A program made the translations under genes and the position numbers. A stretch of DNA of 64,000 nt from a phage: NCBI GenBank assembly GCA_008273105.1, contig GCA_008273105.1_4080.1; one strand, given 5' to 3'. Below, piece by piece: positions 25,620 through 43,495 of this stretch; position 1 is the first letter of the stretch; each line of letters opens with the position of its first letter. The notes beneath the pieces were generated by a model. The model worked only from the letters and a program-made list of their open reading frames with translations, searched no databases and was not told the DNA's origin.

Positions 25620-25825
25620 TTTGAATCTCCTAACTTTGTGGGCCGTCGCACCATTGCCGCCCTACGAGATACATTATTGCAGTACTGATATACTTTGTCA
25701 ATACTTTTTTTATTAATAGTTTTCACTTCACCAGCAGATAGTTACTCACCGTTATTAACTATATATTTTGGATACACTTATGCACCCTGTGGGCTAGTTT
25801 TTGTCTATGCGTATATAATAGCAAA

Positions 25826-25858
25826 GGAACTGACCGGAGTCAATCCCTTTTTTATTCT
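25826..25858 (-). terminator. intrinsic terminator hairpin (in repeated intergenic module)
   Basis: ggaactgaccggagtcaatccc hairpin with flanking A/T runs immediately downstream of gene 25861..26118; overlaps a TTGACT -35-like hexamer. Confidence 0.45.
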
Positions 25859-25860
25859 TT

Positions 25861-26118
25861 TTATGAAATATCTTCGATGTAGTCGGCCCATTTCATTTTT
25901 TCAGTACTGTCAATGGCTACCGGATTATTTGGATCAAACCATTCACCATTCCCGCAATACATACCCACGGCAACGGTTTTATAGCCATCCTGTGCAGTAC
26001 TCCACGACATAGCACGATAGATATGGCCTTTAACTGGTTGCAGTACTGGTAATGTTTTATGGTCTTCTACGTAGGCCATAGCTTGAGGATTTACCCGATA
26101 TTGTGTGAACTGTTCCAT
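25861..26118 (-). CDS. hypothetical early protein
   Basis: ORF 85 aa; AGGGGA SD. Confidence 0.55.
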   Translation of the reverse strand: MEQFTQYRVNPQAMAYVEDHKTLPVLQPVKGHIYRAMSWSTAQDGYKTVAVGMYCGNGEWFDPNNPVAIDSTEKMKWADYIEDIS

Positions 26119-26194
26119 TATGTTTCCCCTTGTAGTTAGTAAAGTTATTACATCAGTACTATCAAGCTATGTCAATAGTACTGAAATAAAACTT

Positions 26195-26419
26195 TTAGAT
26201 TAGATTATTGATGCCGTTGATGGTAGACTCGCTTTCTTCTTTCTCCCATTGGCGGTAGTACTTCCATGCTTCATGATATGTGGCGATTAGTTCATCTTTT
26301 TGATCCTGAGTACATGCCAGTACTGAATCACGATGAGCGGTGTTATAGATAGAATCGAATGATTTCTTCTCTTCTGCCAGGTTAGCTACTTCCCGCATTA
26401 GTTCATCAAAGTTAGCCAT
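26195..26419 (-). CDS. hypothetical early protein
   Basis: ORF 74 aa (MANFDEL...); AAGGAG SD; 5'-UTR hairpin gggggaggatatctccccc. Confidence 0.6.
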   Translation of the reverse strand: MANFDELMREVANLAEEKKSFDSIYNTAHRDSVLACTQDQKDELIATYHEAWKYYRQWEKEESESTINGINNLI

Positions 26420-26466
26420 TTTATTACTCCTTTTAGTGGGGGAGGATATCTCCCCCTATGCAAAAC

Positions 26467-26494
26467 ATTATACTTTGTTTTAGTTATTATGCAA
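26467..26494 (-). promoter_or_regulatory. sigma70-type early promoter (TTGCAT-N16-TATAAT)
   Basis: Minus strand TTGCAT aataactaaaacaaag TATAAT, then UTR hairpin 26438-26456. Confidence 0.6.
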
Positions 26495-26750
26495 GTACTT
26501 TTTTCATATAAAGATTATATTCTACACCGCCGTAACCTTCTACGATGATATGTTTTGCGTTATCACGTTTGCACATAGTGAAACCGTTGTTGATGTGTTC
26601 TGCATTTTCCAGGGCGACATCACCGATAGCGGCACATACGGCACTAATAACAGTATTCCGCAAAGTACTGGTATCATTAGCGGTCATAGTAGTTTGCAGT
26701 ACTACGTTGTCGTATACGTGTGCATTGATAGTGATTTCGATAGTGTTCAT
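26487..26750 (-). CDS. hypothetical early protein
   Basis: ORF 87 aa; AGGAG SD. Confidence 0.55.
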   Translation of the reverse strand: MNTIEITINAHVYDNVVLQTTMTANDTSTLRNTVISAVCAAIGDVALENAEHINNGFTMCKRDNAKHIIVEGYGGVEYNLYMKKVLA

Positions 26751-26836
26751 GGTGTATCTCCTGGACTGGCGGGAGAACTATTCCCCCGCTCTATGTAAAA
26801 CATTATACGTTAATCTAACTACAATGCAAGTACTTT

Positions 26837-27028
26837 TTAAATTTTATTTCCGATATAGTCCGGTCTATTCTTTTCGGTCATACGCTTTGCTAATGTTTGC
26901 ATATGGCTTATTGCGTTTAATGTGTCTTCCTCCAGGGATGAATCAACATAATCAGGATCATTCTTCACCTTGCAATGATTATGATAGCGTAGTACTGCCA
27001 GTACTTTTTTAACTTCTTCTACTGTCAT
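26837..27028 (-). CDS. hypothetical early protein
   Basis: ORF 63 aa; ATGA overlap with upstream gene (coupled). Confidence 0.5.
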   Translation of the reverse strand: MTVEEVKKVLAVLRYHNHCKVKNDPDYVDSSLEEDTLNAISHMQTLAKRMTEKNRPDYIGNKI

Positions 27029-27297
27029 AATAAGTACCCCACTTCGTTAGCTTTCAGGTTAGTATCAATCATCAGTGGATTTTTGTAGTTCACAAAACGA
27101 TTAGTTTTCTCGATAGCGAATCCCATATAATCCAGCTTACTAACAGTACATTCATTCTTAAAAACTTCTTTCGCTGCATCGATGGCTGATTGCATGGATA
27201 ACCGACCATCTAAATTAATGTTTCCAAATGATCCACCAGCAGAAGTAGGATTACCGTTCATATCTTTAATGATCATAGTAGCGGAGTAGCTGGACAT
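27025..27297 (-). CDS. hypothetical early protein
   Basis: ORF 90 aa; AGGAA SD; hairpin ggggagaactattctcccc in 5' UTR. Confidence 0.55.
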   Translation of the reverse strand: MSSYSATMIIKDMNGNPTSAGGSFGNINLDGRLSMQSAIDAAKEVFKNECTVSKLDYMGFAIEKTNRFVNYKNPLMIDTNLKANEVGYLL

Positions 27298-27381
27298 AAT
27301 TTTGTTTCCTTTTAGTATCGGGGAGAACTATTCTCCCCTTGATGTAAACTATTATACAGTACTGATATACTTTGTCAATAC

Positions 27382-27603
27382 TTAATTACGTTTAAAATGA
27401 TATGTGCCTTTATCATCCTGTACGCCCCATACTGATTTACCATCAACACCAGTGAAACCGGATTGTAATTCAATATGGAAACCATTATTATCAACTACAA
27501 AAACTTTTTTATTTTCATCCCGATAACATTGATATTCTGAATCAACATTAAAGGCCGCATCATTCAGAAGATTGGAAGCGTAAATGCAAGTCATTGTAGT
27601 CAT
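27382..27603 (-). CDS. hypothetical early protein
   Basis: Start set at MTTMTCIY after AAGGAA; upstream extension is translated UTR hairpin. Confidence 0.5.
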   Translation of the reverse strand: MTTMTCIYASNLLNDAAFNVDSEYQCYRDENKKVFVVDNNGFHIELQSGFTGVDGKSVWGVQDDKGTYHFKRN

Positions 27604-27657
27604 GATTTTATTCCTTATTCTTTGAGGGAGAACCATTTCCCCCTCTCGATATAAAAC

Positions 27658-27685
27658 ATTATACTTGATTCTAAGTACAATGCAA
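27658..27685 (-). promoter_or_regulatory. sigma70-type early promoter (TTGCAT-N16-TATAAT)
   Basis: Minus strand TTGCAT tgtacttagaatcaag TATAAT. Confidence 0.6.
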
Positions 27686-27779
27686 GTACTTTTTAAAAAA
27701 TAGTTTTCAGTACTGAATACTTATATAATAGATACATTTATGCACCCTGTGGGTCAGTGAGCTATCTCTCAATGAATAT

Positions 27780-27828
27780 ATAATAGCAAAGGGACTGACC
27801 GAAGTCAATCCCTTTTTTAATCTTTTTT
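27780..27828 (-). terminator. terminator hairpin overlapping a promoter-like TTGACT-N17-TATTAT element
   Basis: gggactgaccgaagtcaatccc hairpin with A/T flanks just downstream of kinase-like gene; same module at 25.8, 30.7 and 34.4 kb. Confidence 0.45.
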
Positions 27829-28411
27829 ATCGTGTTATAGTTACGGCTTTTACATCCCGCTTTTTATAGTACTGATTCCAGATATTGCGGGTTAAACCGT
27901 AATCAAGTACTTTAATAAGGCCGTTGCGATCCTGGCCGATATTCTGTTTTCTGATATCTCTTATCGTTAGTGTTGACAGTGTATCATCAACGTGTTGTAG
28001 TGCATCAGCAAAGCGGTGCTGGCGTTCAATTGCATTACGTTTAATATTGTACTTTAATTCGTTGCACGCGTTAACGTGCTTTACACTGCCTTTGCTTGCA
28101 GTACTCAACCGATCCATAACGATAAACATATTATCAGGATCGCTTAAATGCATATGCACTTTAGCAAAGTACTGTTTCAATTGAGGGCGGTCATAGTCTA
28201 AAAAATTCCATACCTTACATTCAGTTTCATTTTGTTCTACACCCGCATCACAATTGGCGACCTTAATCACTAACCGATCATTTAAAGCGAAAACTATACG
28301 GGAAGAACCTGCACCGATGATCTCCAAGCCAGCTAACCGACAAGCTGAAAGGATCTCTTTGTTGGTTTCCATTTCTGACAGTGTACGGATGAATTTAGTA
28401 TAATTACGCAT
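27827..28411 (-). CDS. protein kinase-like protein (truncated ePK-like fold)
   Basis: Gly-rich loop IGAGSSRIVF, VIK lysine, catalytic-loop-like IRDIRKQNIG, DYG (DFG-like) with typical spacing; start set at MRNYTKF after AAGGAGA. Confidence 0.6.
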   Translation of the reverse strand: MRNYTKFIRTLSEMETNKEILSACRLAGLEIIGAGSSRIVFALNDRLVIKVANCDAGVEQNETECKVWNFLDYDRPQLKQYFAKVHMHLSDPDNMFIVMDRLSTASKGSVKHVNACNELKYNIKRNAIERQHRFADALQHVDDTLSTLTIRDIRKQNIGQDRNGLIKVLDYGLTRNIWNQYYKKRDVKAVTITR

Positions 28412-28442
28412 TGCATGTTCTCCTTGAGTTAATGAAACTATA

Positions 28443-28685
28443 TTACAGTACTTTACTATCAATGGCAACTACTTTTTTAACATTAACGGCGTGGATCACT
28501 TCCTTCGTGTTTTTAGTACTGAATACTTTTGCCGTACCTTGTTCGACCGCAATACGATAGCGACCGTTAACGTCCACCATGTTGATAAAGTCCGGGGTAC
28601 TGAATGGAGTTACCCGGCATTTAAGAACGGTTAACAGTTCCACCAGCGTTGTAGTCTCTTTGATACGTTTTTCTAAAGTAATCAT
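28443..28685 (-). CDS. hypothetical early protein (paralog of 28743..28961)
   Basis: Start set at MITLEKRIK downstream of TTGACA-N17-TACTAT; six-frame extension MTVLKCFS is translated promoter. Confidence 0.5.
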   Translation of the reverse strand: MITLEKRIKETTTLVELLTVLKCRVTPFSTPDFINMVDVNGRYRIAVEQGTAKVFSTKNTKEVIHAVNVKKVVAIDSKVL

Positions 28686-28742
28686 TTTGTTTTCCCCGTG
28701 TTGGTATGCGTACATAGTACTAAAACATTTGAGTACTGTCAA

Positions 28743-28961
28743 TTAGATAATAGAATATTTCTTTAGTGATAATGCGTCTTCTGTCGGTTGATATTCTACA
28801 CCGTTCCCGTTATCTACCTTAGTGAGTAAACCTTTATCAATGAGTTTTTTGATGGTACGGTTTCCCTGTTGAAAACTGGTGAAGTGTGAATCATTACGAA
28901 AGGTATAACCGTGCTTCACTGCTTCATCAATAGTTTTCTTTTCGATTTTAGATAATTTCAT
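28743..28961 (-). CDS. hypothetical early protein, possible HTH DNA-binding
   Basis: Start set at MKLSKIEKK downstream of TTGACA-N17-TATTAT; HTH assignment is a guess from sequence appearance. Confidence 0.45.
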   Translation of the reverse strand: MKLSKIEKKTIDEAVKHGYTFRNDSHFTSFQQGNRTIKKLIDKGLLTKVDNGNGVEYQPTEDALSLKKYSII

Positions 28962-29017
28962 TTTGTTTCTCTCTCTGTGTTGGTATAGATACATAATACT
29001 AAAACATTTGAGTACTG

Positions 29018-29272
29018 TCAACGTGATATTAGTTTTATTTTTTTATTGTATTGTTGGTGTTCATATAGATTAATTTTTCCAGTACTCTCGATCACTATTC
29101 TATTGTTAGTGTCTACGTCGATTACACGTAGTTTCCCGTTGCTTAACTTCCTAGGCAATAGACTACCATTAATAAACTCATTAGCAAGCTGTACGGCCTT
29201 TGAGATGATTCTCTGTGGGGCTTTATAGTGTACCCGTAATACATTATCGTTTGATAGTTGAACCTTAATCAT
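29018..29272 (-). CDS. hypothetical early protein
   Basis: ORF 84 aa. Confidence 0.5.
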   Translation of the reverse strand: MIKVQLSNDNVLRVHYKAPQRIISKAVQLANEFINGSLLPRKLSNGKLRVIDVDTNNRIVIESTGKINLYEHQQYNKKIKLISR

Positions 29273-29285
29273 TTTGTTTATCCTA

Positions 29286-29311
29286 TAAAAAAGGCGGGAA
29301 CAGTTCCCGCC
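29286..29311 (-). terminator. intrinsic terminator
   Basis: Hairpin ggcgggaacagttcccgcc followed on minus strand by TTTTTTAT, just downstream of 29335..29730. Confidence 0.6.
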
Positions 29312-29334
29312 GTGTTGTTAGTACTGCAATGTTA

Positions 29335-29730
29335 TTAGATAACCTGGCGGCGTTTACTGTATACTGTTACACGGTTTCCTTTACGGTCATGACGGATCTC
29401 TTTCTGGTTACGAATCAGTTCACTTGGACGCTTAAGGTTTGCCAGGTGATCCGCGTGAGTCCATGCATTTGCGTTAACTGTAACTTCAATATCAGAACCT
29501 TCCAAGAAGTCATCTTGAGCGTTCAGTACTTCAGCCAGTTCTTGAGCTTTCTTCAGTTCTGCTTCAGTAAGTACAGGCTCAGGTGAATTCACAATATCAG
29601 AGATCTCTTTGAACTGTACCGCCCAGCGTTGTCCTTTCGGTGCATCTTTGCCCATGTCTTTAAATGTTTCACCTTCTTCACGAGCAACGATGCGAGCTTG
29701 TTCACGGGTAGCGAAGAATTTAGTAATCAT
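29335..29730 (-). CDS. hypothetical early protein (paralog of 41617..41880)
   Basis: Shares KFFATREQARI, TFKDMG, RWAV, DRKGNRVTVY with 41617 gene. Confidence 0.55.
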   Translation of the reverse strand: MITKFFATREQARIVAREEGETFKDMGKDAPKGQRWAVQFKEISDIVNSPEPVLTEAELKKAQELAEVLNAQDDFLEGSDIEVTVNANAWTHADHLANLKRPSELIRNQKEIRHDRKGNRVTVYSKRRQVI

Positions 29731-29829
29731 GGTGTACATCCTATTAGTTAAGTTAATTAGTACTACAAGTTAGAGTCTATTATAAAGTACTATCTGGGCA
29801 ATGTCAAATAGTACTTTAAATGGATTCTA

Positions 29830-30153
29830 TTACATGTCTTTCTTACGTTTTACATCGTAGTAACGAACTGTAATTTCTTTGTTGATCTCTTCCTCGATGC
29901 GGTGAATAACTTTTTCTTTCGGGTTGAAACCTATTACAGTTTCTTTAATGATCTCCAAGCCCGTGTATTCGCCTTGTGTACCGTAACCGTAAGTAAAGGT
30001 TTCATGTCCCAGGTCTTCCCAGCGGTCACCAATCAATGCAGACACGTAGCATGAGTGGTAAGTATTGCCGTGGCTATCAGTCCACCGATTAACTTTAATG
30101 TCAAAGGAAGTTACAATTTTCATTTCTACTTTCTGGGTAAGGATCATAGCCAT
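29830..30153 (-). CDS. hypothetical early protein (paralog of 35992..36315)
   Basis: Shares RWTDSxGNTYHSC, FTYGY and C-terminal VKRKKD. Confidence 0.55.
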   Translation of the reverse strand: MAMILTQKVEMKIVTSFDIKVNRWTDSHGNTYHSCYVSALIGDRWEDLGHETFTYGYGTQGEYTGLEIIKETVIGFNPKEKVIHRIEEEINKEITVRYYDVKRKKDM

Positions 30154-30242
30154 TTTAATTTCTCTCTTTGTTAGGTGGGGAACTATTCCCCACTTGATGT
30201 AAAATATTATACAGTACTAAAAACTATTGTCAAACTATTTTA

Positions 30243-30443
30243 TCAAATTGTTTCCCATTTCATGTTACCCGCTTTACGCTGTGAAACAGGAATAAACATG
30301 TTATTAATGTTACTAATATAACCGACCTGTAAGTCACGCTGTGAACCATACGCCCGACTTGCTGCATTTTTAGCACCGCGTTCTGATTTATAAACGCCGC
30401 TGGATACTGTAAAGCCTACTACACCGAAAGTAAAATGTTTCAT
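30243..30443 (-). CDS. hypothetical early protein
   Basis: ORF 66 aa; TTGACA-N16-TATAAT and AGAGGAA SD upstream; long duplicated leader further upstream. Confidence 0.55.
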   Translation of the reverse strand: MKHFTFGVVGFTVSSGVYKSERGAKNAASRAYGSQRDLQVGYISNINNMFIPVSQRKAGNMKWETI

Positions 30444-30493
30444 TTTGTATTCCTCTTTGTGGTTGATGTAAGTATTATACTCGTTTAATTTCT

Positions 30494-30600
30494 ATTGTCA
30501 AACTATTTTATCAGGGGAGGTTTTCGTATGTCTTACTCCTGGACTACTTAACGGGGAGTTACTTGTTTCGTTCCCCGTCCTGATGTAAAACATTATACGC
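30494..30600 (-). repeat. about 107-bp structured leader repeat (copy 1)
   Basis: Near-identical to 40926-41035; contains hairpin acggggag...ctccccgt and the early promoter -10 region. Confidence 0.7.
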
Positions 30601-30766
30601 TTATCGTGATACTTTGCAAGTACTTTTTAAAAATAGTTTTCAGTACTATCAAATACTAGCCGCCAGCATATAATAGATACATTTATGCACCCTGTGGGCT
30701 GATTTGTTTCTATGCGTATATAATAGCAAAGGGACTGACCGGAGTCAATCCCTTTTTTAATTCTTT

Positions 30767-30916
30767 TTAAACTTGTTTTGGGTTGCGATATGTGATAGCG
30801 TTCGGGTACATTTGTTTAATGTTATTCCATGCCTGGTTAACATTGTAACCACTTGAGCGAATCAGTTGGTTACTACCGACACCTTGAAACACTACTTCGA
30901 ATAAGAATTCTTTCAT
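30767..30916 (-). CDS. hypothetical small protein (49 aa, below ORF-track cutoff)
   Basis: Manual translation MKEFLFEVVFQGVGSNQLIR...; AGGTGA SD; ATGA overlap with upstream gene. Confidence 0.4.
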   Translation of the reverse strand: MKEFLFEVVFQGVGSNQLIRSSGYNVNQAWNNIKQMYPNAITYRNPKQV

Positions 30917-31086
30917 GCTTTCACCTCGCGATCTGCTTTACCTTTACGCCACGACATTACTAATTGTTCGCGTTGCCATAAGTCGAGTGATACAAAAAGT
31001 TTTGCGGTATCACTTTTAGGATACTCGCCATTAGTACCTAACCGATAAAACAGATCTTTCAGTACTGATAATTCTACTTGAATCAT
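30913..31086 (-). CDS. hypothetical small protein (57 aa, below ORF-track cutoff)
   Basis: Manual translation MIQVELSVLKDLFYRLGTNGEYPK...; AGGAG SD; ATGA overlaps both ends. Confidence 0.45.
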   Translation of the reverse strand: MIQVELSVLKDLFYRLGTNGEYPKSDTAKLFVSLDLWQREQLVMSWRKGKADREVKA

Positions 31087-31175
31087 TTTATTACTCCTGA
31101 TTGCGTTAATACTTCTACTATTGCATGAATGATCATAAGTACAGCTAAAACAATAATCATCGGATTCATTTGCAT
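31083..31175 (-). CDS. hypothetical small hydrophobic peptide (30 aa)
   Basis: MQMNPMIIVLAVLMIIHAIVEVLTQSGVIK; AAGGAG SD 8 nt upstream; first gene of a 3-gene mini-operon. Confidence 0.35.
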   Translation of the reverse strand: MQMNPMIIVLAVLMIIHAIVEVLTQSGVIK

Positions 31176-31192
31176 AAGCTGTACTCCTTATA

Positions 31193-31405
31193 TTAATCTT
31201 TCAGCCAATGATCTTGAATGAATTTTTCACAGAATCCCTGTTTCATGGATTCTAACAGGCGTTCGCGGTGAGCGGCGGCATATTGCTCAGTACTATGCGT
31301 TACGCCAGGCTGATAACGTGATACCCCATCCGGTCCGATGTATTGTACATCCCACGGTTTTTCGTTAGTATCAGACCATTTACGAACGATTAGTTGACCT
31401 TGCAT
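31193..31405 (-). CDS. hypothetical early protein
   Basis: ORF 70 aa; AGGAAA SD; UTR hairpin. Confidence 0.55.
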   Translation of the reverse strand: MQGQLIVRKWSDTNEKPWDVQYIGPDGVSRYQPGVTHSTEQYAAAHRERLLESMKQGFCEKFIQDHWLKD

Positions 31406-31489
31406 TTTTCTTTCCTCTTAGTGGGGAGAATCATTTCTCCCCTTCATGTAACTTATTATACAGTACTATAATCTATTGTCAAATACTTT

Positions 31490-31678
31490 TTAAAGTTTAT
31501 GAATCAATTCTTTATCTAAGCGATAGCGTACATTATTAATGGTAACAGCATTATTTTTAATGCTACGCTGTACAGGTCCACCAGCAATAACAAACGTTGC
31601 TTTATTACCCCGAACAATGATAGCACTTCCAGGATTACCGAAATCATCTTGTACTAAAATACTTGATAAGTTTTCCAT
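31490..31678 (-). CDS. hypothetical early protein
   Basis: ORF 62 aa; AGGAAA SD; UTR hairpin aggggaagatgtttcccct. Confidence 0.55.
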   Translation of the reverse strand: MENLSSILVQDDFGNPGSAIIVRGNKATFVIAGGPVQRSIKNNAVTINNVRYRLDKELIHKL

Positions 31679-31756
31679 TTTTATTTCCTCTTAGTAGGGG
31701 AAGATGTTTCCCCTTGATGTAAGTACTATAACAGTACTTAAAACTAAATGCAAGTA

Positions 31757-32113
31757 CTATGATAAAATCATGATAGGATATTCACTATCGATCAGTACCT
31801 CGAATCCGAACCCTTCGTACCATTCTTTAAGATTAAAGGCGTTATCTTCTCCCGTATCGCATTCTAAGATGATACAATCTGAATCATCGGCGGCATCGAT
31901 AAAGGCATTCATTAATTCGTTACCTTCACCATTGCCCCGACTATCAGGATCAACATAAAGAGAATCAATAAACGCTACACGGTCATAATCAAGATCCGGT
32001 GCAATGATTCCACGTTTAACAAACCAGTACTGCAACTGTGCTACTTTGCCCTGTACTTGATAGCCAGTGATCTCGCCATTGTCAGTAGTACGCGTGATAT
32101 GTTGTATTCCCAT
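31757..32113 (-). CDS. GNAT-like acetyltransferase (tentative)
   Basis: VAFIDSLYVDPDSRGNGEGNELMNAF resembles GNAT motif A (R-x-x-G-x-G); short for a GNAT. Confidence 0.35.
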   Translation of the reverse strand: MGIQHITRTTDNGEITGYQVQGKVAQLQYWFVKRGIIAPDLDYDRVAFIDSLYVDPDSRGNGEGNELMNAFIDAADDSDCIILECDTGEDNAFNLKEWYEGFGFEVLIDSEYPIMILS

Positions 32114-32142
32114 GATTTCAATCCTCAGTTAAGATATAAAAT

Positions 32143-36933: not shown

Positions 36934-37170
36934 TGTTTTGATTCCTTTGATTTGGAAGGAGAACCGTTTCCCCCTCTCGATGTAAAACATTATACGCTAA
37001 TCTCTTAATCGTGCAAGTACTTTTTATTACTTTTTGCAAAATACTTTAAACGCTCTCAATCGCATTCTAACGACCTTAACGCCACCAGCTAGGGCGATGT
37101 ATCAGATAATCAGTTTAATGCGTTAGAATCGATTCTAGGCGGTGCTGGTGGACTGGAATACTACAGACAC

Positions 37171-37197
37171 AAAAAAGCCCACTGTTTAAGGTGGGCT
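37171..37197 (-). terminator. intrinsic terminator
   Basis: Hairpin agcccacc ttaaacag tgggct followed on minus strand by TTTTTT; identical copy at 37906-37932. Confidence 0.65.
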
Positions 37198-37218
37198 AGT
37201 GATTCAGTACTTTAATTG

Positions 37219-37701
37219 TTATGCTTCAACTTTGCGATGAGCTTCGATCCATTCCTCGCGAGTCATACCGCTTTCTTTGATAGCGTCCAGTACTACCGCA
37301 ATGCAGTTACCGCGTACAGGAATCATATGTTCTTCCCCGTTATCAAGTACTACAGTAACACGTTCTTGAATCCATTTTTTAGGTTTAGATTCTGGCTTAT
37401 CTTCACCATACTTAACCGCCAGGGCTTTATGTGCCATTTCTACAACTACTTCCAGATCCAATCCAGCCACCGCCGCCTGGATACTTTCGATTGTTGCTTG
37501 CAGTTCGGCTTCACGGGCTTTTTTCTGTTCTTCCAGTTCTGCTACCTTTTTGGCTTGCAGTTCTTTAGCTTCACTGTACGCAATGTTAAAATTGTTGCGT
37601 ACTGCTTTCATGGTATCGTTATCCAGGTCAGCCAACAATTCAGCAGCAATAACAGTATCGTTTGAAATCAGTGCTTTCAGGAATGATTTTACATTAGCCA
37701 T
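37219..37701 (-). CDS. H-NS-like nucleoid-associated protein (tentative)
   Basis: Helical charged N-terminal region (AKELQAKKVAELEEQKKAREAELQ); C-terminus VVLDNGEEH...PVRGNC...AIKESGMTREEWI loosely resembles, from memory, the H-NS C-terminal DNA-binding region; start at MANVKSF after GAGGA. Confidence 0.35.
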   Translation of the reverse strand: MANVKSFLKALISNDTVIAAELLADLDNDTMKAVRNNFNIAYSEAKELQAKKVAELEEQKKAREAELQATIESIQAAVAGLDLEVVVEMAHKALAVKYGEDKPESKPKKWIQERVTVVLDNGEEHMIPVRGNCIAVVLDAIKESGMTREEWIEAHRKVEA

Positions 37702-37905
37702 TTTATAAATCCTCAATTAAAGTTTAGTTTACGTTTATTAGTGTATCAAAGTTTTATCGACGTGTCCAGTTTTTCGTTCGACTTACTGGCGGTCTACTTA
37801 GTGCTCCCCGTCTTGATGTAATACATTCTACGCCTTTTTGTGGTAATGTCAACTACTATTTTAAAACTATTTTTAAAGTATGCAGTACTACGATAATACA
37901 AAAAC

Positions 37906-37932
37906 AAAAAAGCCCACTGTTTAAGGTGGGCT
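37906..37932 (-). terminator. intrinsic terminator (second copy)
   Basis: Same hairpin agcccacc...tgggct + T-run downstream of 37950..38249. Confidence 0.65.
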
Positions 37933-37949
37933 AGTGATTCAGTACTATA

Positions 37950-38249
37950 TTATAAACAGTTAATTACTCCGGTGTGCGTTACTTTCTCAGTATCCATAAC
38001 CGTGACCGATCCACGCTTAGTACTTACATCGTAATAAATTGTCGTGCTACCTTTTTCGTCTTCTTCATGGAACGGGCCGCTTTTAAATGCTTCTGGCTGG
38101 ATCTCTAAATCCTTTAAAACAATCTCGCCAGTACTTTCATCTGTCATCGCAACAGTGCACTGAATGAATTTTTCACTACTTACATCTAACGACGCATTAA
38201 CAGCGAAAGAGGAAACAGATAAAGCCAGGGCGATGATTGCAATTTTCAT
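37950..38249 (-). CDS. secreted/periplasmic protein with N-terminal signal peptide
   Basis: MKIAIIALALSVSSFAVNA-SLD: n-region, hydrophobic core and AxA-like cleavage site; AAGGA SD. Confidence 0.55.
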   Translation of the reverse strand: MKIAIIALALSVSSFAVNASLDVSSEKFIQCTVAMTDESTGEIVLKDLEIQPEAFKSGPFHEEDEKGSTTIYYDVSTKRGSVTVMDTEKVTHTGVINCL

Positions 38250-38333
38250 TTGATTATCCTTAGTTACCAGGGGGAACCGCTCCCCCGTGCGATGTAAAAT
38301 ATTGTACAGTACTAAAAACTAATTGCAAGTACT

Positions 38334-38570
38334 TTATGATTTTTTATAAAACATTTCGGCAGTAATATTTTTACCCGTTGGTTGTACTTTATCCAGAATT
38401 TTTTGATGCCCTGGCCGTCCAAATGAATATGATCCGTAAACCGTAAACCAGTAGTTACCCTCAGTGTTTACATGTACAGCACAATAGGGAACGCCCCGCG
38501 ATTCATCACCAATAAAGTGTGATACCGTTCCCGTTACATTAGCAGACGTTGATTTGATTTGTTCAAGCAT
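38334..38570 (-). CDS. hypothetical early protein
   Basis: ORF 78 aa; AAGGAA SD; UTR hairpin gggggaaccgctccccc. Confidence 0.55.
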   Translation of the reverse strand: MLEQIKSTSANVTGTVSHFIGDESRGVPYCAVHVNTEGNYWFTVYGSYSFGRPGHQKILDKVQPTGKNITAEMFYKKS

Positions 38571-38679
38571 TTTCTTATTCCTTAGTTACCAGGGGGAACC
38601 GCTCCCCCTATGCAAAACATTATACGCGTTTAAAAACTAATAGCAAGTATTTTAATAAAAAGTATTTGAAAAATAATTG

Positions 38680-38708
38680 TTGACAACTGCATCCAGTACT
38701 GGCATAAT
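38680..38708 (+). promoter_or_regulatory. plus-strand sigma70-type promoter (TTGACA-N17-CATAAT), antisense to early genes
   Basis: TTGACA actgcatccagtactgg CATAAT, followed about 28 nt later by CCCACAGGGTGCA at 38737-38749. Confidence 0.45.
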
Positions 38709-38788
38709 TACTACATAAAGACGATACAGTCACTAACCCACAGGGTGCATAGATCCGTCTATTAAATGATTCAGTACTTAACAATAAA

Positions 38789-38806
38789 GGGGATCAATCG
38801 ATCCCC
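38789..38806 (-). terminator. hairpin terminator downstream of 38813..39034
   Basis: ggggatcaatcgatcccc followed on minus strand by TTTATTGTT. Confidence 0.45.
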
Positions 38807-38812
38807 TATGTA

Positions 38813-39034
38813 TTACTTAGTAAGGTATAAACAGAAGTCACCTTTATTTGCTACGCCGCCAGTGTAACGCGATGAATAGTTAGAAACGTCCTGGACTTCT
38901 GCTATTACCAGTGTATCATCATTCAATTCGTCGCAGAAGCAAACGGCTGGATCTTTTACGCCGATCTTGTCGGCATGTTCCCGCATAGATTTAACCAGTG
39001 CTTCCAGTTGAGAAAGAGTAGTGATATTAGCCAT
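38813..39034 (-). CDS. hypothetical early protein
   Basis: Start set at MANITTL after GAGGA; upstream extension is translated hairpin. Confidence 0.5.
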   Translation of the reverse strand: MANITTLSQLEALVKSMREHADKIGVKDPAVCFCDELNDDTLVIAEVQDVSNYSSRYTGGVANKGDFCLYLTK

Positions 39035-39118
39035 TGTATTTTCCTCATTACCAGGGAGAACCATTTCTCCCCTCTATGTAAACTATTATACAGTACTGAA
39101 AACTAATTGCAAGTACTT

Positions 39119-39307
39119 TTAATTAAATTCCATAAAATCATTCTCAACGTGCACAACAATTTGATTGTTTTTAAAGTCCGCAGCGAACTCGATGCAATCA
39201 TAAACCGCTTTTTGTGTTACAATGCTATGAGTACCAATCGGATTAATAGGGGATTGAATTGTTTCAATCTCGTTCCCTTGCTCATTAACAATTAAAATAT
39301 TAAACAT
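39119..39307 (-). CDS. hypothetical early protein
   Basis: ORF 62 aa; AGGAG SD. Confidence 0.5.
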   Translation of the reverse strand: MFNILIVNEQGNEIETIQSPINPIGTHSIVTQKAVYDCIEFAADFKNNQIVVHVENDFMEFN

Positions 39308-39363
39308 CGCTGTTACTCCTGGGTAGTGTTAACTCGATATAAAGTATTATACGCCTTTATTGC

Positions 39364-39567
39364 TTAGTGTCCAGTACTTTTTAAAACATATTCATAAACA
39401 CTACGCACATCATTGATCATCGCCTGGCGGTTAGCAGGTAACGCACCAGGATCGCCACTATCCCAGGCATTGATAAAACTCCCCAAATCATGAAAGATTT
39501 TATTCTGTAAGCCGATTAACTGCAATTCTTTTTCTTCAAGCTCTTTGATACGGTCAATTAAAAGACT
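39364..39567 (-). CDS. hypothetical early protein
   Basis: Start set at MSLLIDRIK after GAGGA. Confidence 0.45.
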   Translation of the reverse strand, partial: SLLIDRIKELEEKELQLIGLQNKIFHDLGSFINAWDSGDPGALPANRQAMINDVRSVYEYVLKSTGH

Positions 39568-39587
39568 CATTAGATAATCCTCAGTAC

Positions 39588-39875
39588 TTAATTGTAAGAT
39601 CCGCAACGGTTACAATAGTGCCCGTCTTCCTCGTCATCGTCAACGAATTGACCGACGAAATTATCTACTTTCTCTTTGAGATTCTGATAATTGTTTTCAA
39701 CTTCCTTTAGACGTTCCTGGTAGTATTCCAGGGCTTGCACATACGCCGCCTCAGCCGTTTTCGCTCTTAAGGCTAAATTCATGCCACGCGTTTCATCGTA
39801 CATCCAAAAGCCATCGGTGCACTCACTGATTGACAATGATTTGGTTAACACTTTATAGTCAATTACTTTGCTCAT
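39588..39875 (-). CDS. hypothetical early protein with C-terminal Cys pair
   Basis: Start set at MSKVIDYKVL after GAGGA; C-terminus HYCNRCGSYN. Confidence 0.45.
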   Translation of the reverse strand: MSKVIDYKVLTKSLSISECTDGFWMYDETRGMNLALRAKTAEAAYVQALEYYQERLKEVENNYQNLKEKVDNFVGQFVDDDEEDGHYCNRCGSYN

Positions 39876-39931
39876 TAGATAATCCTCAGTAAAGGCGGGA
39901 ACCACACCCGCCATTGATTCAGTACTGAATG

Positions 39932-40171
39932 TTACATTCCAACCATTGCAGCACGGATCGCCGTAGTGCTATACTTGAATCCGTCCGGTGTTGTAGTAGT
40001 ACCGTTGGCTTTTAATCTGCGGTACATACATTGGGCCGCAATATCTTTAGTTTTACATTGTGCGATGCAACTTTGAGCAAGCCGATATAATGACTCACCG
40101 TTATTAATCCACAATGAAACATTCCAATGAGTTTTGTTTTTGTGTCCGTTGTAAGTTTTAGTACTAGCCAT
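39932..40171 (-). CDS. hypothetical early protein (paralog of 41972..42211)
   Basis: Shares GHKNKTHWNVSLWINN.ESLYRLAQ and TPDGFKYSTTAIRAAMVGM. Confidence 0.55.
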   Translation of the reverse strand: MASTKTYNGHKNKTHWNVSLWINNGESLYRLAQSCIAQCKTKDIAAQCMYRRLKANGTTTTPDGFKYSTTAIRAAMVGM

Positions 40172-40261
40172 TTTTAAATCCTCGTTTGAGCGGGGAACCA
40201 TTCCCCGCCTCGATATAAAGTATTATACGCTTTTAAACTTAGTTTGCAAGTACTTTTTAAA

Positions 40262-40873
40262 TTAATATGCGATTGATTCTACTACGTCATCAATAACATT
40301 GAATTGATATTCGTTACCCTCAATCAGTGCCGTAATGTTTTCAGTAGTGAATTGATCCTCATATGCATTCTCTAAATCACGGTACAACTTGCGGGATAAT
40401 TCACGAATAGTTTCAGTGAGTAGTTCCTCAAGCTCATTAACTAACGTTTCTTGTTTTGCGGTTAAATCAGTGTAAGCCGATTCAATGTACCCGCTTACAG
40501 TATTCTCATGTGAGTACAAAGAATGAGAACGCTTTACACTCATCGCCAAATCATCTTCATTCAGCAGGTGACGGATTGAGCGATACTTAGTTAATGCTCT
40601 TACCTTGCGTAAAAACTTCACTGCGTCAACGTGGTCAGTACTGATTGATGCACCGTCACCCTGGGACCAAAAACCACTGAATTGTATTTCAGCGTCATTA
40701 ATGCCATATTCCGGTAGTACTGTTTCTTTATAGTATTCAATTTCACTTTCAGAAAAATAATTGTCGTTTGAGTTTTTTTCACGTTCCCGAACCAGTTCGA
40801 TAGCCGCCGCTTGTTGTTCTGCGTTCAGTTCAGAAAAAGCCATAACGAAAGTAGTAGTAGTGATAGTTTTCAT
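40262..40873 (-). CDS. acidic hypothetical protein
   Basis: ORF 203 aa, many D/E residues, motif FSGFWSQGDGASI; GAGGG SD. Confidence 0.55.
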   Translation of the reverse strand: MKTITTTTFVMAFSELNAEQQAAAIELVREREKNSNDNYFSESEIEYYKETVLPEYGINDAEIQFSGFWSQGDGASISTDHVDAVKFLRKVRALTKYRSIRHLLNEDDLAMSVKRSHSLYSHENTVSGYIESAYTDLTAKQETLVNELEELLTETIRELSRKLYRDLENAYEDQFTTENITALIEGNEYQFNVIDDVVESIAY

Positions 40874-40925
40874 TTTGTAACCCTCATTCAGTAGTTTATG
40901 TAAGTATTATACGCTTTTAAAAACA

Positions 40926-41035
40926 TTTGTCAAACTATTTTATCAGGGGAGTTTTTCGTGTGCCTTACTCCTGGGCTACTTAACGGGGAGTTACTTATTT
41001 CGTTCCCCGTCCTGATGTAAAACATTATACGCCTT
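40926..41035 (-). repeat. about 107-bp structured leader repeat (copy 2)
   Basis: Near-identical to 30494-30600. Confidence 0.7.
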
Positions 41036-41095
41036 TAAACATAGTTTGCAAGTACTTTTTAAAAATAGTTTTCAGTACTGAATATTAAAAAAGTA

Positions 41096-41124
41096 TTGAC
41101 AGCATTATCAAGTACTGGCATAAT
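41096..41124 (+). promoter_or_regulatory. plus-strand sigma70-type promoter (TTGACA-N17-CATAAT)
   Basis: Followed by CCCACCGGGTGCA at 41146-41158; convergent with an inverted copy at 41203-41216. Confidence 0.45.
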
Positions 41125-41298
41125 ATACCCCATGACAACAGCTAACCCACCGGGTGCACAATTGTAACTATACTAAACTAATTTTTCTATAGATACACTC
41201 CCGCACCCTATGGGCTACGGCTTATCTGCCAATGAATACATTATGCCAGTACTGACAAAATAAGTCAATACCGGCAATTGTAAAGATTTGTAAACTGC

Positions 41299-41529
41299 TT
41301 ATACTGCAATCGCGTCCAGGCTATAATAATAATAAGTGCCGTATTGGTGTACTTTATTACCTTTTATTTCAGTACTGAATGAATCCGAACGGTTTGCATA
41401 TGATGTTAATTTAAAGTACTTTGATTTGCTGATACGTTGCCATACACCGCAGATCCGCTGTAAGTAAGTAGTTTTATTAGTGGTAGTATCTTTTACGGTT
41501 TTAACTTCAGTCATATACATATTAGTCAT
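41299..41529 (-). CDS. hypothetical early protein
   Basis: ORF 76 aa. Confidence 0.5.
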   Translation of the reverse strand: MTNMYMTEVKTVKDTTTNKTTYLQRICGVWQRISKSKYFKLTSYANRSDSFSTEIKGNKVHQYGTYYYYSLDAIAV

Positions 41530-41616
41530 TTTTATTACTCCAGGTTATAGGCGGGAAGTGTTCCCGCTCTCGATGTAAAACATTATACGCCATTAAACAT
41601 AGTTTGCAAGTACTTT

Positions 41617-41880
41617 TTATTCAAGTACTGCAATCTTTTTAGTACGGTACACGGTCACGCGGTTGCCCTTTCGGTCGAGCTTTATTTCTACCACTCGACG
41701 CGATACACTATCGGGACTTTTTAAGGCCGCTAACCAGTACTGTAATGATCTGGCGGTACTACGCTTTACAATGGCCCAACGTTTACCACGTTCCGATTGT
41801 ACGCCCATATCTTTAAACGTTGCCCCGGCGTGGCGTGCGGCGATCCGAGCTTGTTCACGCGTCGCAAAATACTTAATATT
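41617..41880 (-). CDS. hypothetical early protein (paralog of 29335..29730)
   Basis: Start set at MNIKYFATREQ; shared motifs with 29335 gene. Confidence 0.5.
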   Translation of the reverse strand, partial: NIKYFATREQARIAARHAGATFKDMGVQSERGKRWAIVKRSTARSLQYWLAALKSPDSVSRRVVEIKLDRKGNRVTVYRTKKIAVLE

Positions 41881-41971
41881 CATGCTGTTGCCCTTATCGT
41901 TGGTGTATGAATAAAACACTATTATAAAGTACTATCCCCGTGCAATAGTACTTTAAATAAATTCTATTCTA

Positions 41972-42211
41972 TTACATTCCAACCATTGCCGCACGGATCG
42001 CAGTAGTGCTATATTTGAATCCGTCCGGTGTTTTATCTTGTCCAGTCTGTTCTAAAAATAACATCATATGACGGGCCGCATCATTGCGATTAGTGCTATC
42101 GTTAATAAAGTCCTGGGCCAACCGGTATAATGATTCATCGTTATTAATCCAAAGGCTTACATTCCAATGAGTTTTGTTTTTGTGACCTAAGAACATTTTT
42201 GATTTAGCCAT
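41972..42211 (-). CDS. hypothetical early protein (paralog of 39932..40171)
   Basis: ORF 79 aa; GAGGA SD. Confidence 0.55.
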   Translation of the reverse strand: MAKSKMFLGHKNKTHWNVSLWINNDESLYRLAQDFINDSTNRNDAARHMMLFLEQTGQDKTPDGFKYSTTAIRAAMVGM

Positions 42212-42306
42212 TTTTTTTTAATCCTCTTATATAGTGGGGAACTATTCCCCACCTGATGTAAAACATTATACGCCATTAAACATAGTTTGCAAGTACTTTA
42301 TTAAAC

Positions 42307-42669
42307 TTATTTGTAAATTTTACCACTGTCAGCCCATACCAGGAAACGAGGCATATTATCCCATGCATCTTGTTTTAAGTTTAAGCCGTGCAATTCCTCA
42401 GTTGTTGCCATCCCTGGTACTGGCTTACTACACACCGCGAAATTTTCGCCCATATACTGATAAACCATCGTCAAATCATTTGAGATCATTATATGGATCA
42501 TTGAATCCAGCATCAAAGTAGCGGCGTATTGTTCACGCTTAAGCGGCAACATTGCAATAAGTTCCCGATAAGCTGCAATGTGAATTTTTACAGTTTCAGC
42601 CGGAAGACCTTTCATCTCATCGCGGAAGTTTACCAGGTTAAGCATGATTTTATTGATTTGAGTCGCCAT
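42307..42669 (-). CDS. hypothetical early protein
   Basis: Start set at MATQINKIM; six-frame extension MFYIESG is the translated -10 region. Confidence 0.5.
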   Translation of the reverse strand: MATQINKIMLNLVNFRDEMKGLPAETVKIHIAAYRELIAMLPLKREQYAATLMLDSMIHIMISNDLTMVYQYMGENFAVCSKPVPGMATTEELHGLNLKQDAWDNMPRFLVWADSGKIYK

Positions 42670-42724
42670 CGTTTTAATCTCTCTTAATGTGTAGCGGGAA
42701 GTGTTCCCGCTCTCGATGTAAAAC

Positions 42725-42752
42725 ATTATACGCTTTTATCAGTACGGTGCAA
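42725..42752 (-). promoter_or_regulatory. sigma70-type early promoter (TTGCAC-N16-TATAAT)
   Basis: Minus strand TTGCAC ... TATAAT gttttacatcgag, then hairpin gcgggaagtgttcccgc. Confidence 0.55.
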
Positions 42753-42784
42753 GTACTTTCTACAAATACTTTTAAAATAGTTTT

Positions 42785-42876
42785 CTTTCTATATAGGAGT
42801 ACTATTATTCAGTACTGAATCAATCCAGGGGAACTATCTTTCTATATAGGAGTACTATTATTCAGTACTGAATCAA
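42785..42876. repeat. 39-bp direct repeat x2 (14-bp spacer)
   Basis: ctttctatataggagtactattattcagtactgaatcaa at 42785-42823 and 42838-42876; contains palindrome ttcagtactgaa. Confidence 0.8.
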
Positions 42877-43028
42877 CCAAATCACTACTACACCCCATAA
42901 AACGGCCTCAGACGCATTCTAACGCATTAATACACATAAGCTATACATTTGCACCATTCCAATCATTCCAGGGCTTTACAGGCCGTTTAAACGCGTTAAA
43001 TTATTTTCAATTATTTTGTTTTTAGGTA

Positions 43029-43056
43029 TTGACTTGATCCTGAAAAAGCGTATAAT
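43029..43056 (+). promoter_or_regulatory. plus-strand sigma70-type promoter (TTGACT-N16-TATAAT)
   Basis: Initial transcribed sequence tactacatagacg matches the 38.7 kb copy; CCCAGAGGGTGCG at 43084-43097. Confidence 0.45.
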
Positions 43057-43495
43057 TACTACATAGACGCGAGAAAGCGGAAACCCCAGAGGGTGCGGAA
43101 TTACGCCCAAAATTCAAGATATAAAAAAAGGATACACTCCCGCACCCTAGCAGGTAAACGCACTTTCTCAGTACTGAAATATAGTACCATAGTCCGGCCC
43201 AGGATAGCAAGCAAATTAATTAAAACTTTTTTGCTTCCAGGGTATTGCTTTATTTTTTCAGTACTGTATAATAGTTCCATCAAGTCGAGAAAGACTCAAG
43301 CCCACCGGGTGCATAGTTACGCCCAAAATTCAGTACTGAAAAAAATTTTAAAAATATCCGTCCAGGCCGTTGACATTGCCCCCAGTTTATAAGATAATGA
43401 TTCCAGATTCAGAAAAATCTAACGTTCGATACTGCTGGGGAATTTACCCCGACGCGGTAGGGGAACTATTGGAAAAAACAAAATAAAATTTTGAT

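Follow-up and report, generated by a model that had tools for sequence, protein, structure and literature searches.

A structured RNA element of about 48 nucleotides (nt) recurs ten times within the predicted direct terminal repeat (DTR) of a jumbo coliphage, each copy lying just downstream of a sigma70-like promoter of the same orientation. The DNA analysed is a stretch of 64,000 nt (GenBank assembly GCA_008273105.1, contig GCA_008273105.1_4080.1), referred to as the window throughout, in which an initial annotation had reported a recurrent 13-mer, CCCACMGGGTGCA, and had taken it for a dedicated regulatory element. The 13-mer is the core of the larger RNA element, and its recurrence is far above chance: a motif count with enrichment statistics gave seven exact matches in the window and none in 100 dinucleotide shuffles, while at up to two mismatches there are ten, against 0.71 ± 0.86 expected and a shuffle maximum of three. 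A covariance model (R1) seeded with 12 copies was applied unfiltered to the entire window and returned the same ten copies at 28.9-59.2 bits together with a half-copy at 16.2 bits, the next-best score, 11.2 bits, being at noise level. Enrichment and promoter coupling both hold, and the view of a dedicated, non-random element stands. As to positions, 32689, 34353, 41203 and 43084 had each been off by one and the remaining full copies were placed correctly, and the degenerate copy reported at 43141 does exist, as the 3' half alone, with CCCAC absent.

By nucleotide similarity the window is from an Asteriusvirus (121Q/PBECO4-like), a Rak2-like jumbo coliphage, and it matches 121Q, PBECO4, phAPEC6, vB_Ec-M-J and fEgEco12 at 90-98% identity in blocks. 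The limits of the DTR (Table 1) are set by homology to vB_Ec-M-J, whose record annotates a DTR at 1-21525; that of fEgEco12, about 21 kb, was established by PhageTerm and restriction mapping (PMC13070987). Window position 44384 aligns to position 1 of vB_Ec-M-J, its physical left end, and 44385 onward to the unique right end, and because of this jump the window appears to cross a collapsed repeat or a concatemer junction; the GC skew also flips sign at about 44 kb. All ten window copies fall within the DTR, and in the whole vB_Ec-M-J genome (358 kb) there are again ten copies and the half-copy, all inside the DTR at 1085-20125, with zero copies found by the model in the other 336 kb. With ten units per repeat, a packaged genome would carry about 20. 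The repeat is filled with small minus-strand open reading frames (ORFs) and has many intrinsic terminators as well as some 30 strong promoters of sigma70-like type, and by homology it would be the immediate-early region. The 39-kb DTR of PA5oct, a distantly related Pseudomonas phage, is the most strongly transcribed early region of that phage and yields two abundant non-coding RNAs (ncRNAs), each making up 2-5% of phage reads (PMC7318152). Unlike the present element, these ncRNAs are 236-450 nt long and single-copy, and the sequence of ncRNA001 is unrelated, the best model score in its region being 6.2 bits.

Applied to terminal regions totalling 222 kb, from six sources and five genera (counted as Asteriusvirus, RaK2, Munch, Hallingskeid and BF, with one more Rak2-like contig among the sources), the same model recovers 63 full copies. 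The terminal regions of Klebsiella phage RaK2, Salmonella phage Munch, Erwinia phage Hallingskeid and Serratia phage BF hold 9-13 copies each, and these four phages have little nucleotide similarity to the window beyond the element.

Architecture of the element and constraint on its transcript

Conservation in the alignment of the ten window copies reaches past the 13-mer. From 5' to 3' the element consists of a hairpin (P1), a linker, an invariant CCC-N3-4-GGGUGC, and a 4-nt loop followed by a 3' strand, with which the GGGUGC forms a second hairpin, P2 (GGGUGCN-N4-NRYRYCY). The P1 stem has 3-5 bp and is free in sequence (UGAG/CUCA, GACG/CGUC, GUC/GAC, CGC/GCG, GGC/GCC, GCCG/CGGC, UCCA/UGGA and AGCA/UGCU all occur), its loop is purine-rich and 6-8 nt long (GAGAAA, GCGAAA, AGAUAA/G, AGAACAA), and the linker of 3-5 nt is commonly CUAA or CAAG. 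The 3' strands of P2 include UGUAUCU, UCCGUCU and UACGCCC, and the flank "agatacac", already noticed as conserved on one side of the 13-mer, is the reverse complement of GUGUAUCU, that is, of this 3' strand.

The constraint on the element acts on RNA. Among the 59 distinct sequences, each of the four P1 pairs varies at both positions (columns 9/25, for example, hold CG 20 times, AU 12, GC 11 and UA 2), standard pairs fill 85% of P1 cells as compared with 72% in shuffles and 23-52% with the partner slid, and the covariation score of 0.423 exceeds the 0.226 of the shuffles, none of 500 reaching it, with slid controls at or below 0.115. The alignment was fitted to the model, hence a model-free count was also made: a hairpin of at least four Watson-Crick pairs ends 3-6 nt before CCC in 23 of 51 distinct upstream sequences, against 3.2 ± 1.7 (maximum 9) in shuffles. 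The 5' strand of P2 is near-invariant and its 3' strand carries U or C where it faces G and A or G where it faces U, the support for this hairpin being chiefly such one-sided G.U/G-C changes; three of the seven P2 pairs are usually G.U, and the rare 5'-strand changes are compensated (GGGCGG with UCCGUCC in Munch, L003:15075; G to A with U in BF, L005:13238). Because G.U pairs would be mismatches in DNA or on the opposite strand, the constraint is attributed to the transcript of the element strand and not to the DNA, in which the element forms no palindrome. The comparative data thus indicate an element that is constrained as RNA, in which P1 covaries and P2 is kept through G.U/G-C exchanges, and of the three readings offered initially, that of a promoter with a conserved leader is the one that fits.

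In an alternative fold, preferred by RNAalifold, the GGG pairs with the invariant CCC to give the hairpin (A)CCC-N3-4-GGG(U). This fold and P2 are mutually exclusive and nearly equal in mean energy (-3.76 and -3.72 kcal/mol, respectively), and the CCC/GGG hairpin lies beyond the reach of covariation analysis because neither triplet ever varies. Two other candidate features were dropped, namely a pseudoknot or long-range helix between the P1 loop AGAUA and the P2 strand UAUCU, which appears in some single-sequence folds with no co-variation in the family, and a small ORF or Shine-Dalgarno mimic suggested by GGGUG followed by AUG or GUG in some copies, for which neither start codon nor frame is conserved.

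Promoters, genomic contexts and distribution

A near-consensus sigma70 promoter in the same orientation precedes all 63 family copies, with a mean match of 10.2/12 to TTGACA/TATAAT, mostly 17-bp spacing and an extended -10 TG in 43 of them. The promoter-like element seen initially is present before every window copy, where the -10 hexamer (TATTAT, CATAAT or TATAAT, in most cases with TG upstream) lies 21-28 nt from CCC; across the 63 copies this distance is 21-29 nt, a spread of 8 nt. The transcript would start at the A of a conserved CA located 6-7 nt past the -10, and by this geometry the element would begin within a few bases of the RNA 5' end, at about +3.

The overlap of this promoter with a terminator hairpin, which had been described for the minus-strand copies in general, occurs at 25781, 27741, 30686 and 34352 and is absent at 32690 and 41202, which use another promoter type, TTGAC-N9-CAGTACTGGCATAAT. 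In the fused design, also present in the other four genera, a 12-bp terminator hairpin carries the -35 TTGACT in its 5' arm, and the T-tract serves as spacer before the extended -10 (TGCTATTAT); the terminator variant at 34.4 kb does carry compensatory stem changes, and the second promoter reported further downstream on the minus strand is found at five positions (Table 1). A promoter for another polymerase or an activator box was considered on account of a -10-like hexamer after P2 in about 40% of copies and rejected, as its offset is variable (constant in only 21 of 56 distinct copies), and a consensus elemental pause was likewise rejected, since its -10G/-1Y/+1G pattern does not fit the element.

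The sequence AGTAC occurs within 30 nt 3' of the element in 44 of the 63 copies, against a background of 27%. The palindrome AGTACT is itself abundant, with 259 occurrences in the window against 21.6 expected from composition (52 against 0.9 for CAGTACTG) and 991 in the 358 kb of vB_Ec-M-J, most densely in the terminal repeat. In the window, 61 of them are placed in promoters, next to an extended -10 (AGTACTGnTATAAT) or across a -35 (AGTACTTGCA), and AGTACT may be recognised by a phage or host factor or belong to a phage promoter grammar. Another set of early promoters lies close to genes; their transcripts would start with a conserved CAUCAAG or CAUAGAG and continue with a GC-rich 5' hairpin (GGGGAG-N7-8-CUCCCC) and a ribosome-binding site, an arrangement also found in Munch and Hallingskeid, in which the hairpin is probably a general stabiliser of early mRNAs.

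Four genomic contexts can be distinguished among the 63 copies: 32 are in sense orientation to the genes, nine are stand-alone antisense units, 20 belong to convergent pairs and two face outward near the genome end. The sense units of the window (25781, 27741, 30686, 32690 and 34352) have their -35 inside the terminator of the preceding operon in four of five cases, and are followed by an A/T-rich block flanked by AGTACT, a second promoter, a GC-rich hairpin in the 5' untranslated region, a ribosome-binding site and the gene. The stand-alone units (38737 in the window) have the promoter TTGACA-N9-CAGTACTGGCATAAT and, about 25 nt past the element, a GC-rich terminator with T-tracts on both sides that is shared with the convergent operon; their predicted RNAs are 95-105 nt long and have no coding overlap. 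Such an arrangement of own promoter, element and bidirectional terminator is seen at window 38680-38807 and in seven further units in four other phages, with an identical layout in the orthologous units of RaK2, Munch and Hallingskeid. On the gene strand, sense and stand-alone units share one slot, bounded by an operon's terminator on one side and by the following operon's promoter on the other; the element itself has a terminator behind it only in those units whose read-through would enter genes in antisense. The plus-strand copies had been described as antisense to early genes, which is correct in part, the unit at 38737 being self-contained and ending at 38788-38807, before the convergent gene.

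Both convergent pairs noted in the window were confirmed (41146/41202, and 43085 with the half-copy). Across the family, members of such pairs have predicted start sites 110-130 nt apart, and their transcripts would be mutually antisense, each of them a candidate to form a hairpin of -29 to -53 kcal/mol. In vB_Ec-M-J (and, by homology, in the window phage) and in BF, one such pair is located about 1 kb from the physical genome end, and in the Munch record one is found at about 1 kb; copies 43085 and 43301 are located in the non-coding terminal 1.7 kb. An A/T-rich palindrome that closely resembles the E. coli Fur box, such as GATAATGATAATCATTT, is centred in each convergent pair of Munch, Hallingskeid, BF and RaK2, and neither of the two Asteriusvirus pairs of the window contains one.

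No known family accounts for the element. Rfam 15 gave no match in the whole window at gathering score, and at E values up to 5 the region 25000-44000 gave five weak chance hits (mir-1000, Trp_leader, snR31), none on the element; a search of the window for transfer RNA and transfer-messenger RNA (tmRNA) found none. A search of IMG/VR with the 15-mer AARCCCACAGGGTGC yielded 80 loci, of which 78 were chance single matches and the real elements lay only in two Rak2-like contigs, and 690 kb of unrelated viral contigs contained zero real copies; the value of this search is that of a negative control only. In 185,579 species-representative genomes a strict pattern gave 23 scattered hits, at or below chance and none real by the model, and because this bacterial scan yielded chance hits alone the element is judged not to be host-derived. 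The searchable literature held no paper with the invariant 12-mer or on Rak2-like early transcripts and, as far as it and Rfam 15 show, this RNA motif family is apparently undescribed. A likeness of the core to tmRNA (AACCCAAGGUGCAU) and to the 530 region of 16S rRNA (GGGUGCA) was dropped as coincidence.

A possible role for the RNA and competing explanations

Each copy can be viewed as a small transcription unit, in which a sigma70 promoter is followed from about +3 by the 48-nt structured RNA. Host RNA polymerase would transcribe these units from the terminal repeat in the first minutes of infection, a single conserved partner, in all likelihood a host or phage protein, would dock on the invariant core, and the RNA would act in trans, as a decoy or cofactor; in the sense copies the module would double as the 5' end of a longer mRNA. 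That the RNA is itself the product, as a set of multi-copy, short immediate-early RNAs which dock a conserved protein, is the explanation tentatively favoured here, as a serious possibility short of a probable one. It is favoured because the unit sits in the slot between operons in either orientation, and because terminators follow only the antisense-prone units and work both ways, while a single conserved partner is suggested by a core that stays invariant across phages of different hosts as the surrounding bases drift. We infer promoter firing, the start and end of the RNA, its action in trans and the existence of a partner from these patterns. A more specific version, which seems unlikely, is that the roughly 20 gene copies flood the cell and the core captures a conserved protein of the host, for instance one of defence or RNA metabolism, and neutralises or redirects it, thus forming an RNA device for host takeover or anti-defence, with the convergent pairs giving hairpin or double-stranded derivatives.

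Several observations weigh against the RNA being the product. Half of the copies, the 32 in sense orientation, have no terminator before the next promoter, which is unusual for an RNA-only gene, and the combination of promoter and Rho-independent terminator that marks an independent small-RNA gene is found in the stand-alone units and not in these 32. One third of the copies stand in convergent pairs, an awkward arrangement for a free RNA given their mutually antisense transcripts. The P1 stem is absent in three of the ten window copies (25781, 30686 and 41146), which have an A-rich single-stranded stretch instead, and single-copy folding energies are only modestly better than those of shuffles (z -0.3 to -2.1), so that the case for structure rests on the comparative data. 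The complete vB_Ec-M-J genome has no site complementary to the core as a seed, and complementarity to E. coli ribosomal RNA (rRNA), tmRNA and RNase P RNA is at shuffle level (-20.3 against -19.5 ± 1.8 kcal/mol). Thirteen ORFs of the DTR have tblastn hits in three or more of the five other sources, and in the ten of these whose proteins were scanned no RNA-binding Pfam family was found. Finally, the start sites and RNA ends are predicted from sequence alone.

In kind, the element belongs with phage leader RNAs and small RNAs. The bacterial Qrr1-5 and CsrB/RsmY resemble it in being paralogous RNAs that share an invariant segment while the remainder drifts, a segment that could occur in mRNA leaders and stand-alone RNAs alike; it differs from them in being phage-encoded, placed in a terminal repeat and limited to one motif per RNA, with no terminator in half of the copies and without the GGA repeats of the CsrB type, the core being GGG. 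We know of no counterpart for its copy number, strict promoter coupling, two-state invariant core, placement in the terminal repeat and convergent pairs.

The nut sites of lambda and the put sites of HK022 are short, structured, bipartite RNAs just past early promoters and in their orientation, in an early region punctuated by intrinsic terminators. The present element could similarly be a cis-acting polymerase-modifying site (nut-, put- or qut-like), in which the nascent RNA, with or without a small phage factor, confers resistance to terminators and allows delayed-early read-through, the stand-alone units switching from short terminated RNAs to antisense read-through. Such a role, the main rival to an RNA product, is possible, if somewhat unlikely. 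Every copy has a promoter of the same orientation and sits near the transcript 5' end; the element is bipartite, its purine-loop hairpin and linear block recalling boxB and boxA; it is confined to the terminator-dense early region; and the cassette behind each sense unit extends to the next terminator. Whatever the context, there is a terminator downstream, and the order of promoter, element and terminator is that of the lambda PR'-6S RNA-tR' unit, to which 38680-38807 corresponds with its strong constitutive promoter, short non-coding transcript and intrinsic terminator. However, there are ten copies per repeat as compared with two per genome for nut and put, and antisense and convergent copies occur as well. 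The terminators directly after the antisense copies have T-tracts on both sides, as if made to stop these RNAs, antisense read-through of early genes would coincide with sense read-through, and the orientation-free placement is unlike control of downstream genes. Sequence likeness is also lacking: the lambda boxA (CGCUCUUA / GCUCUUUAACA) has two or three scattered matches in the window (11630, 12507, 12734, 39762-39763), none at or near an element, the boxB pattern is absent from the elements, and P1, missing in several copies, has loops of 6-8 nt that do not resemble the GNRA-like pentaloop (GAAAA/GAAGA) carried by boxB on a 5-bp stem. In HK022, the highest score of R1, run unfiltered over positions 24000-34000, a presumed early region in which PL/PR and put are unannotated, was 11.8 bits and fell within IS903. 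Among the scanned DTR proteins, whose matches were limited to a ParE-like domain, a weak kinase hit and DUF3846, no N- or Q-like protein was recognised, although N-like proteins, small and arginine-rich, are short and divergent enough to escape such a scan. As for a Q-like mechanism, lambda Q requires a promoter DNA site and a sigma-dependent pause at a fixed distance, whereas here the 8-nt variation from the -10 argues against dependence on a promoter-proximal pause and the conserved part behaves as RNA structure.

A family of base-pairing small RNAs, in which the invariant 12-mer would be the seed for a host RNA with a GCACCCUGUGGG-like sequence and bring about early shut-off or activation, is improbable. 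The linear sequence is indeed invariant across Enterobacterales hosts, the stand-alone copies look like small-RNA genes (promoter, about 100 nt, Rho-independent terminator with U-tail) and the weak, G.U-rich P2 could open easily; against this, the absence of complementary sites described above applies directly, the seed is partly sequestered in both folds, and twenty gene copies look excessive for a regulator of catalytic type. Equally improbable is a determinant of stability or processing, by which hairpin and core would protect the transcript from 5'-end-dependent decay or mark it for ribonuclease cleavage and so time expression. P1 begins about 2-5 nt from the predicted 5' end, A/U-rich single-stranded sequence follows the element, and the gene-proximal early promoters are likewise followed by a 5' hairpin, because of which 5' hairpins can be regarded as a general feature of these transcripts. 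A stabiliser would nevertheless need no invariant 12-mer, P1 is dispensable in some copies, the stand-alone units have no downstream gene to protect, and the second promoter already supplies the genes with a 5' hairpin of their own.

Action at the DNA level, as a shut-off operator, a roadblock or an ops/RfaH-like pause or recruitment site in the initially transcribed region, is less probable still. The conserved 13-mer holds a fixed place just past the promoters and AGTACT is commonly near, but the element is strand-specific in 63 of 63 copies and not palindromic, its distance to the -10 is variable, and its flanks evolve as RNA pairing does, including G.U pairs that would be G.T or A.C mismatches in DNA; these points disfavour the operator suggested initially, and the ops core GGCGGTAG has two window matches, at 26251+ and 59844+, neither within an element. 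The PeSL cassettes of T4-type phages, reportedly described by Arbiol et al. in 2010, fuse a terminator-like stem-loop to a sigma70 early promoter and recur among small early ORFs within a hyperplastic region of a T4-related myovirus, and the units at 25815-25850, 27780-27815, 30720-30755 and 34391-34426 have the same fusion, likewise among small early ORFs; in the window, however, only four of ten units are fused in this way and the conserved, covarying part is downstream of the promoter, and we know of no transcribed structured leader described for PeSLs. That the terminator-promoter-leader blocks are merely PeSL-like homology for shuffling small early genes, with an RNA devoid of role, is the least probable of the explanations (it does not exclude an RNA function): four window units do fuse a terminator stem-loop to an early promoter and flank small ORFs of unknown function, and early gene content differs strongly among related phages while the blocks persist, yet repeats kept by recombination would homogenise and not show compensatory stems round an invariant core, copies in one genome differ in P1 sequence and keep its pairing, and the core is identical across genera with little nucleotide similarity here beyond the element.

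Window units, neighbouring features and significance

The units of the window and associated features are listed in Table 1. The half-copy facing pair B is a GGGUGCG...UGUAUCC hairpin (AGGGTGCGGGAGTGTATCC) followed by seven T at 43130-43148, and because of these it scans as a terminator.

Table 1. Features of the window and of related terminal regions, with coordinates, strand and covariance-model scores (bits).
Feature	Position	Strand	Details
DTR	24367-44384		about 20 kb; placed by homology (blastn against vB_Ec-M-J)
Sense unit 1	25767-25850	-	terminator 25823-25850, containing the -35; promoter 25815-25843 (TTGACT-17-TATTAT)
Unit 1 element	25767-25816	-	exact 13-mer 25781-25793; short form without P1 stem; 36.8 bits
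Second promoter after unit 1	25673-25701	-	TTGACA-17-AATAAT; leads to ORF 25287-25619
Sense unit 2	27727-27815	-	terminator 27788-27815; promoter 27780-27808
Unit 2 element	27727-27777	-	exact 13-mer 27741-27753; P1 UGAG-AGAUAG-CUCA; P2 GGGUGCA-UAAA-UGUAUCU; 59.2 bits
Second promoter after unit 2	27658-27685	-	TTGCAT-16-TATAAT; upstream A/T-rich, UP-like block flanked by AGTACT
Sense unit 3	30672-30755	-	terminator 30728-30755; promoter 30720-30748
Unit 3 element	30672-30721	-	exact 13-mer 30686-30698; short form, P1 stem absent; 35.6 bits
Second promoter after unit 3	30592-30619	-	TTGCAA-16-TATAAT
Sense unit 4	32676-32759	-	promoter 32731-32759 (TTGACA-17-CATAAT, CAGTACTG in spacer)
Unit 4 element	32676-32726	-	inexact 13-mer CCCATAGGGTGCA; core CCCAUAGGGUGCA at 32690-32702; P1 GACG-AGAA-CGUC; 43.2 bits
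Sense unit 5	34338-34426	-	terminator 34399-34426 (stem variant GTGGTTGAC/GTCAGCCAT); promoter 34391-34419
Unit 5 element	34338-34388	-	exact 13-mer 34352-34364; 58.5 bits
Second promoter after unit 5	34270-34297	-	TTGCAA-16-TATAAT
Stand-alone unit, strand opposite genes	38680-38807	+	promoter 38680-38708; after the element AGTACT, then bidirectional terminator 38788-38807 common to convergent operon; predicted RNA about 95-100 nt
Stand-alone unit element	38713-38763	+	exact 13-mer 38737-38749; 44.0 bits
Convergent pair A, plus member	41096-41172	+	promoter 41096-41124
Pair A plus element	41133-41172	+	exact 13-mer 41146-41158; short form; 28.9 bits
Convergent pair A, minus member	41188-41268	-	promoter 41240-41268
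Pair A minus element	41188-41237	-	inexact 13-mer CCCATAGGGTGCG; core CCCAUAGGGUGCG at 41202-41214; 45.8 bits
Second promoter after pair A minus member	41024-41051	-	further downstream
Convergent pair B, plus member	43029-43111	+	promoter 43029-43056
Pair B plus element	43061-43111	+	inexact 13-mer CCCAGAGGGTGCG; core CCCAGAGGGUGCG at 43085-43097; GC-rich P2 variant GGGUG/CGCCC; 32.5 bits
Half-copy facing pair B	43122-43148	-	P2 hairpin alone (AGGGUGCG-GGAG-UGUAUCCU), then U7; model positions 30-48; 16.2 bits
Outward-facing unit	43245-43327	+	promoter 43245-43272 (TTGCTT-16-TATAAT); about 1.1 kb from physical genome end
Outward-facing element	43277-43327	+	exact 13-mer 43301-43313; 42.6 bits
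Further promoter past outward-facing unit	43370-43398	+
AGTACT palindrome, examples	38694-38701, 41073-41080, 43259-43266
Gene-proximal early promoters (-10 ends)	27351, 30204, 31455, 33836, 34856, 36669, 39085, 40222	-	followed by GC-rich 5' hairpin
Fur-box-like palindromes	Munch L003 ~725-745, ~7125-7143; Hallingskeid L004 ~19375-19395, ~19915-19935; BF L005 ~1025-1045; RaK2 L002 ~22800-22825		centred in convergent pairs

Other features of the terminal repeat were recorded. An 8-bp periodic array (TAGCCGTC-like, about 9-10 units) occupies 43497-43581, some 800-890 bp from the genome end, and may be involved in packaging or act as an origin or an iteron-like site; beside it, at 43613-43633 and 43641-43661, stand two solitary copies of CTACGCCCAAAATCC, a sequence that is also the 3' half of elements 43085 and 43301. 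TGATCA inverted repeats at 32597, 32608 and 32653, shared with the orthologous region of Hallingskeid, flank the minus-strand promoter (32597-32660) of ORF 32177-32434, a DksA-like zinc-finger gene kept in the terminal repeats of several genera, and may constitute a separate operator. Two minus-strand ORFs conserved across genera gave domain matches: 29018-29272 encodes a basic protein of 84 amino acids with a ParE-like toxin domain (PF24732, 40 bits, above cut-off), and 27827-28468 encodes one of 213 amino acids (the scan covered 194, beginning at an internal Met), whose match to a protein kinase is weak and does not reach the cut-off. The terminators at 37176-37197 and 37911-37932, at a distance of 735 bp, are identical (AGCCCACCTTAAACAGTGGGCT), and the promoter blocks at 33524-33570 and 36359-36405 are nearly so, all on the minus strand; these duplications account for the weak Trp_leader and mir-1000 hits in Rfam and suggest duplicated early cassettes in the DTR.

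Rak2-like jumbo phages, a widespread group, have genomes of 350-380 kb and are used in therapy studies, yet their early programme is essentially uncharted and most genes of the terminal repeat are annotated as hypothetical. The element provides a defined RNA component of the early region across phages of Escherichia, Klebsiella, Salmonella, Erwinia and Serratia. Its covariance model can be used on new genomes to flag the terminal repeat and the units transcribed early, and the terminator-promoter-leader blocks may serve as compact parts for synthetic biology. Whichever mechanism applies, be it a decoy, polymerase modification or the marking of transcripts, the element would represent a new example of control by RNA, or of manipulation of the host, just as infection begins.

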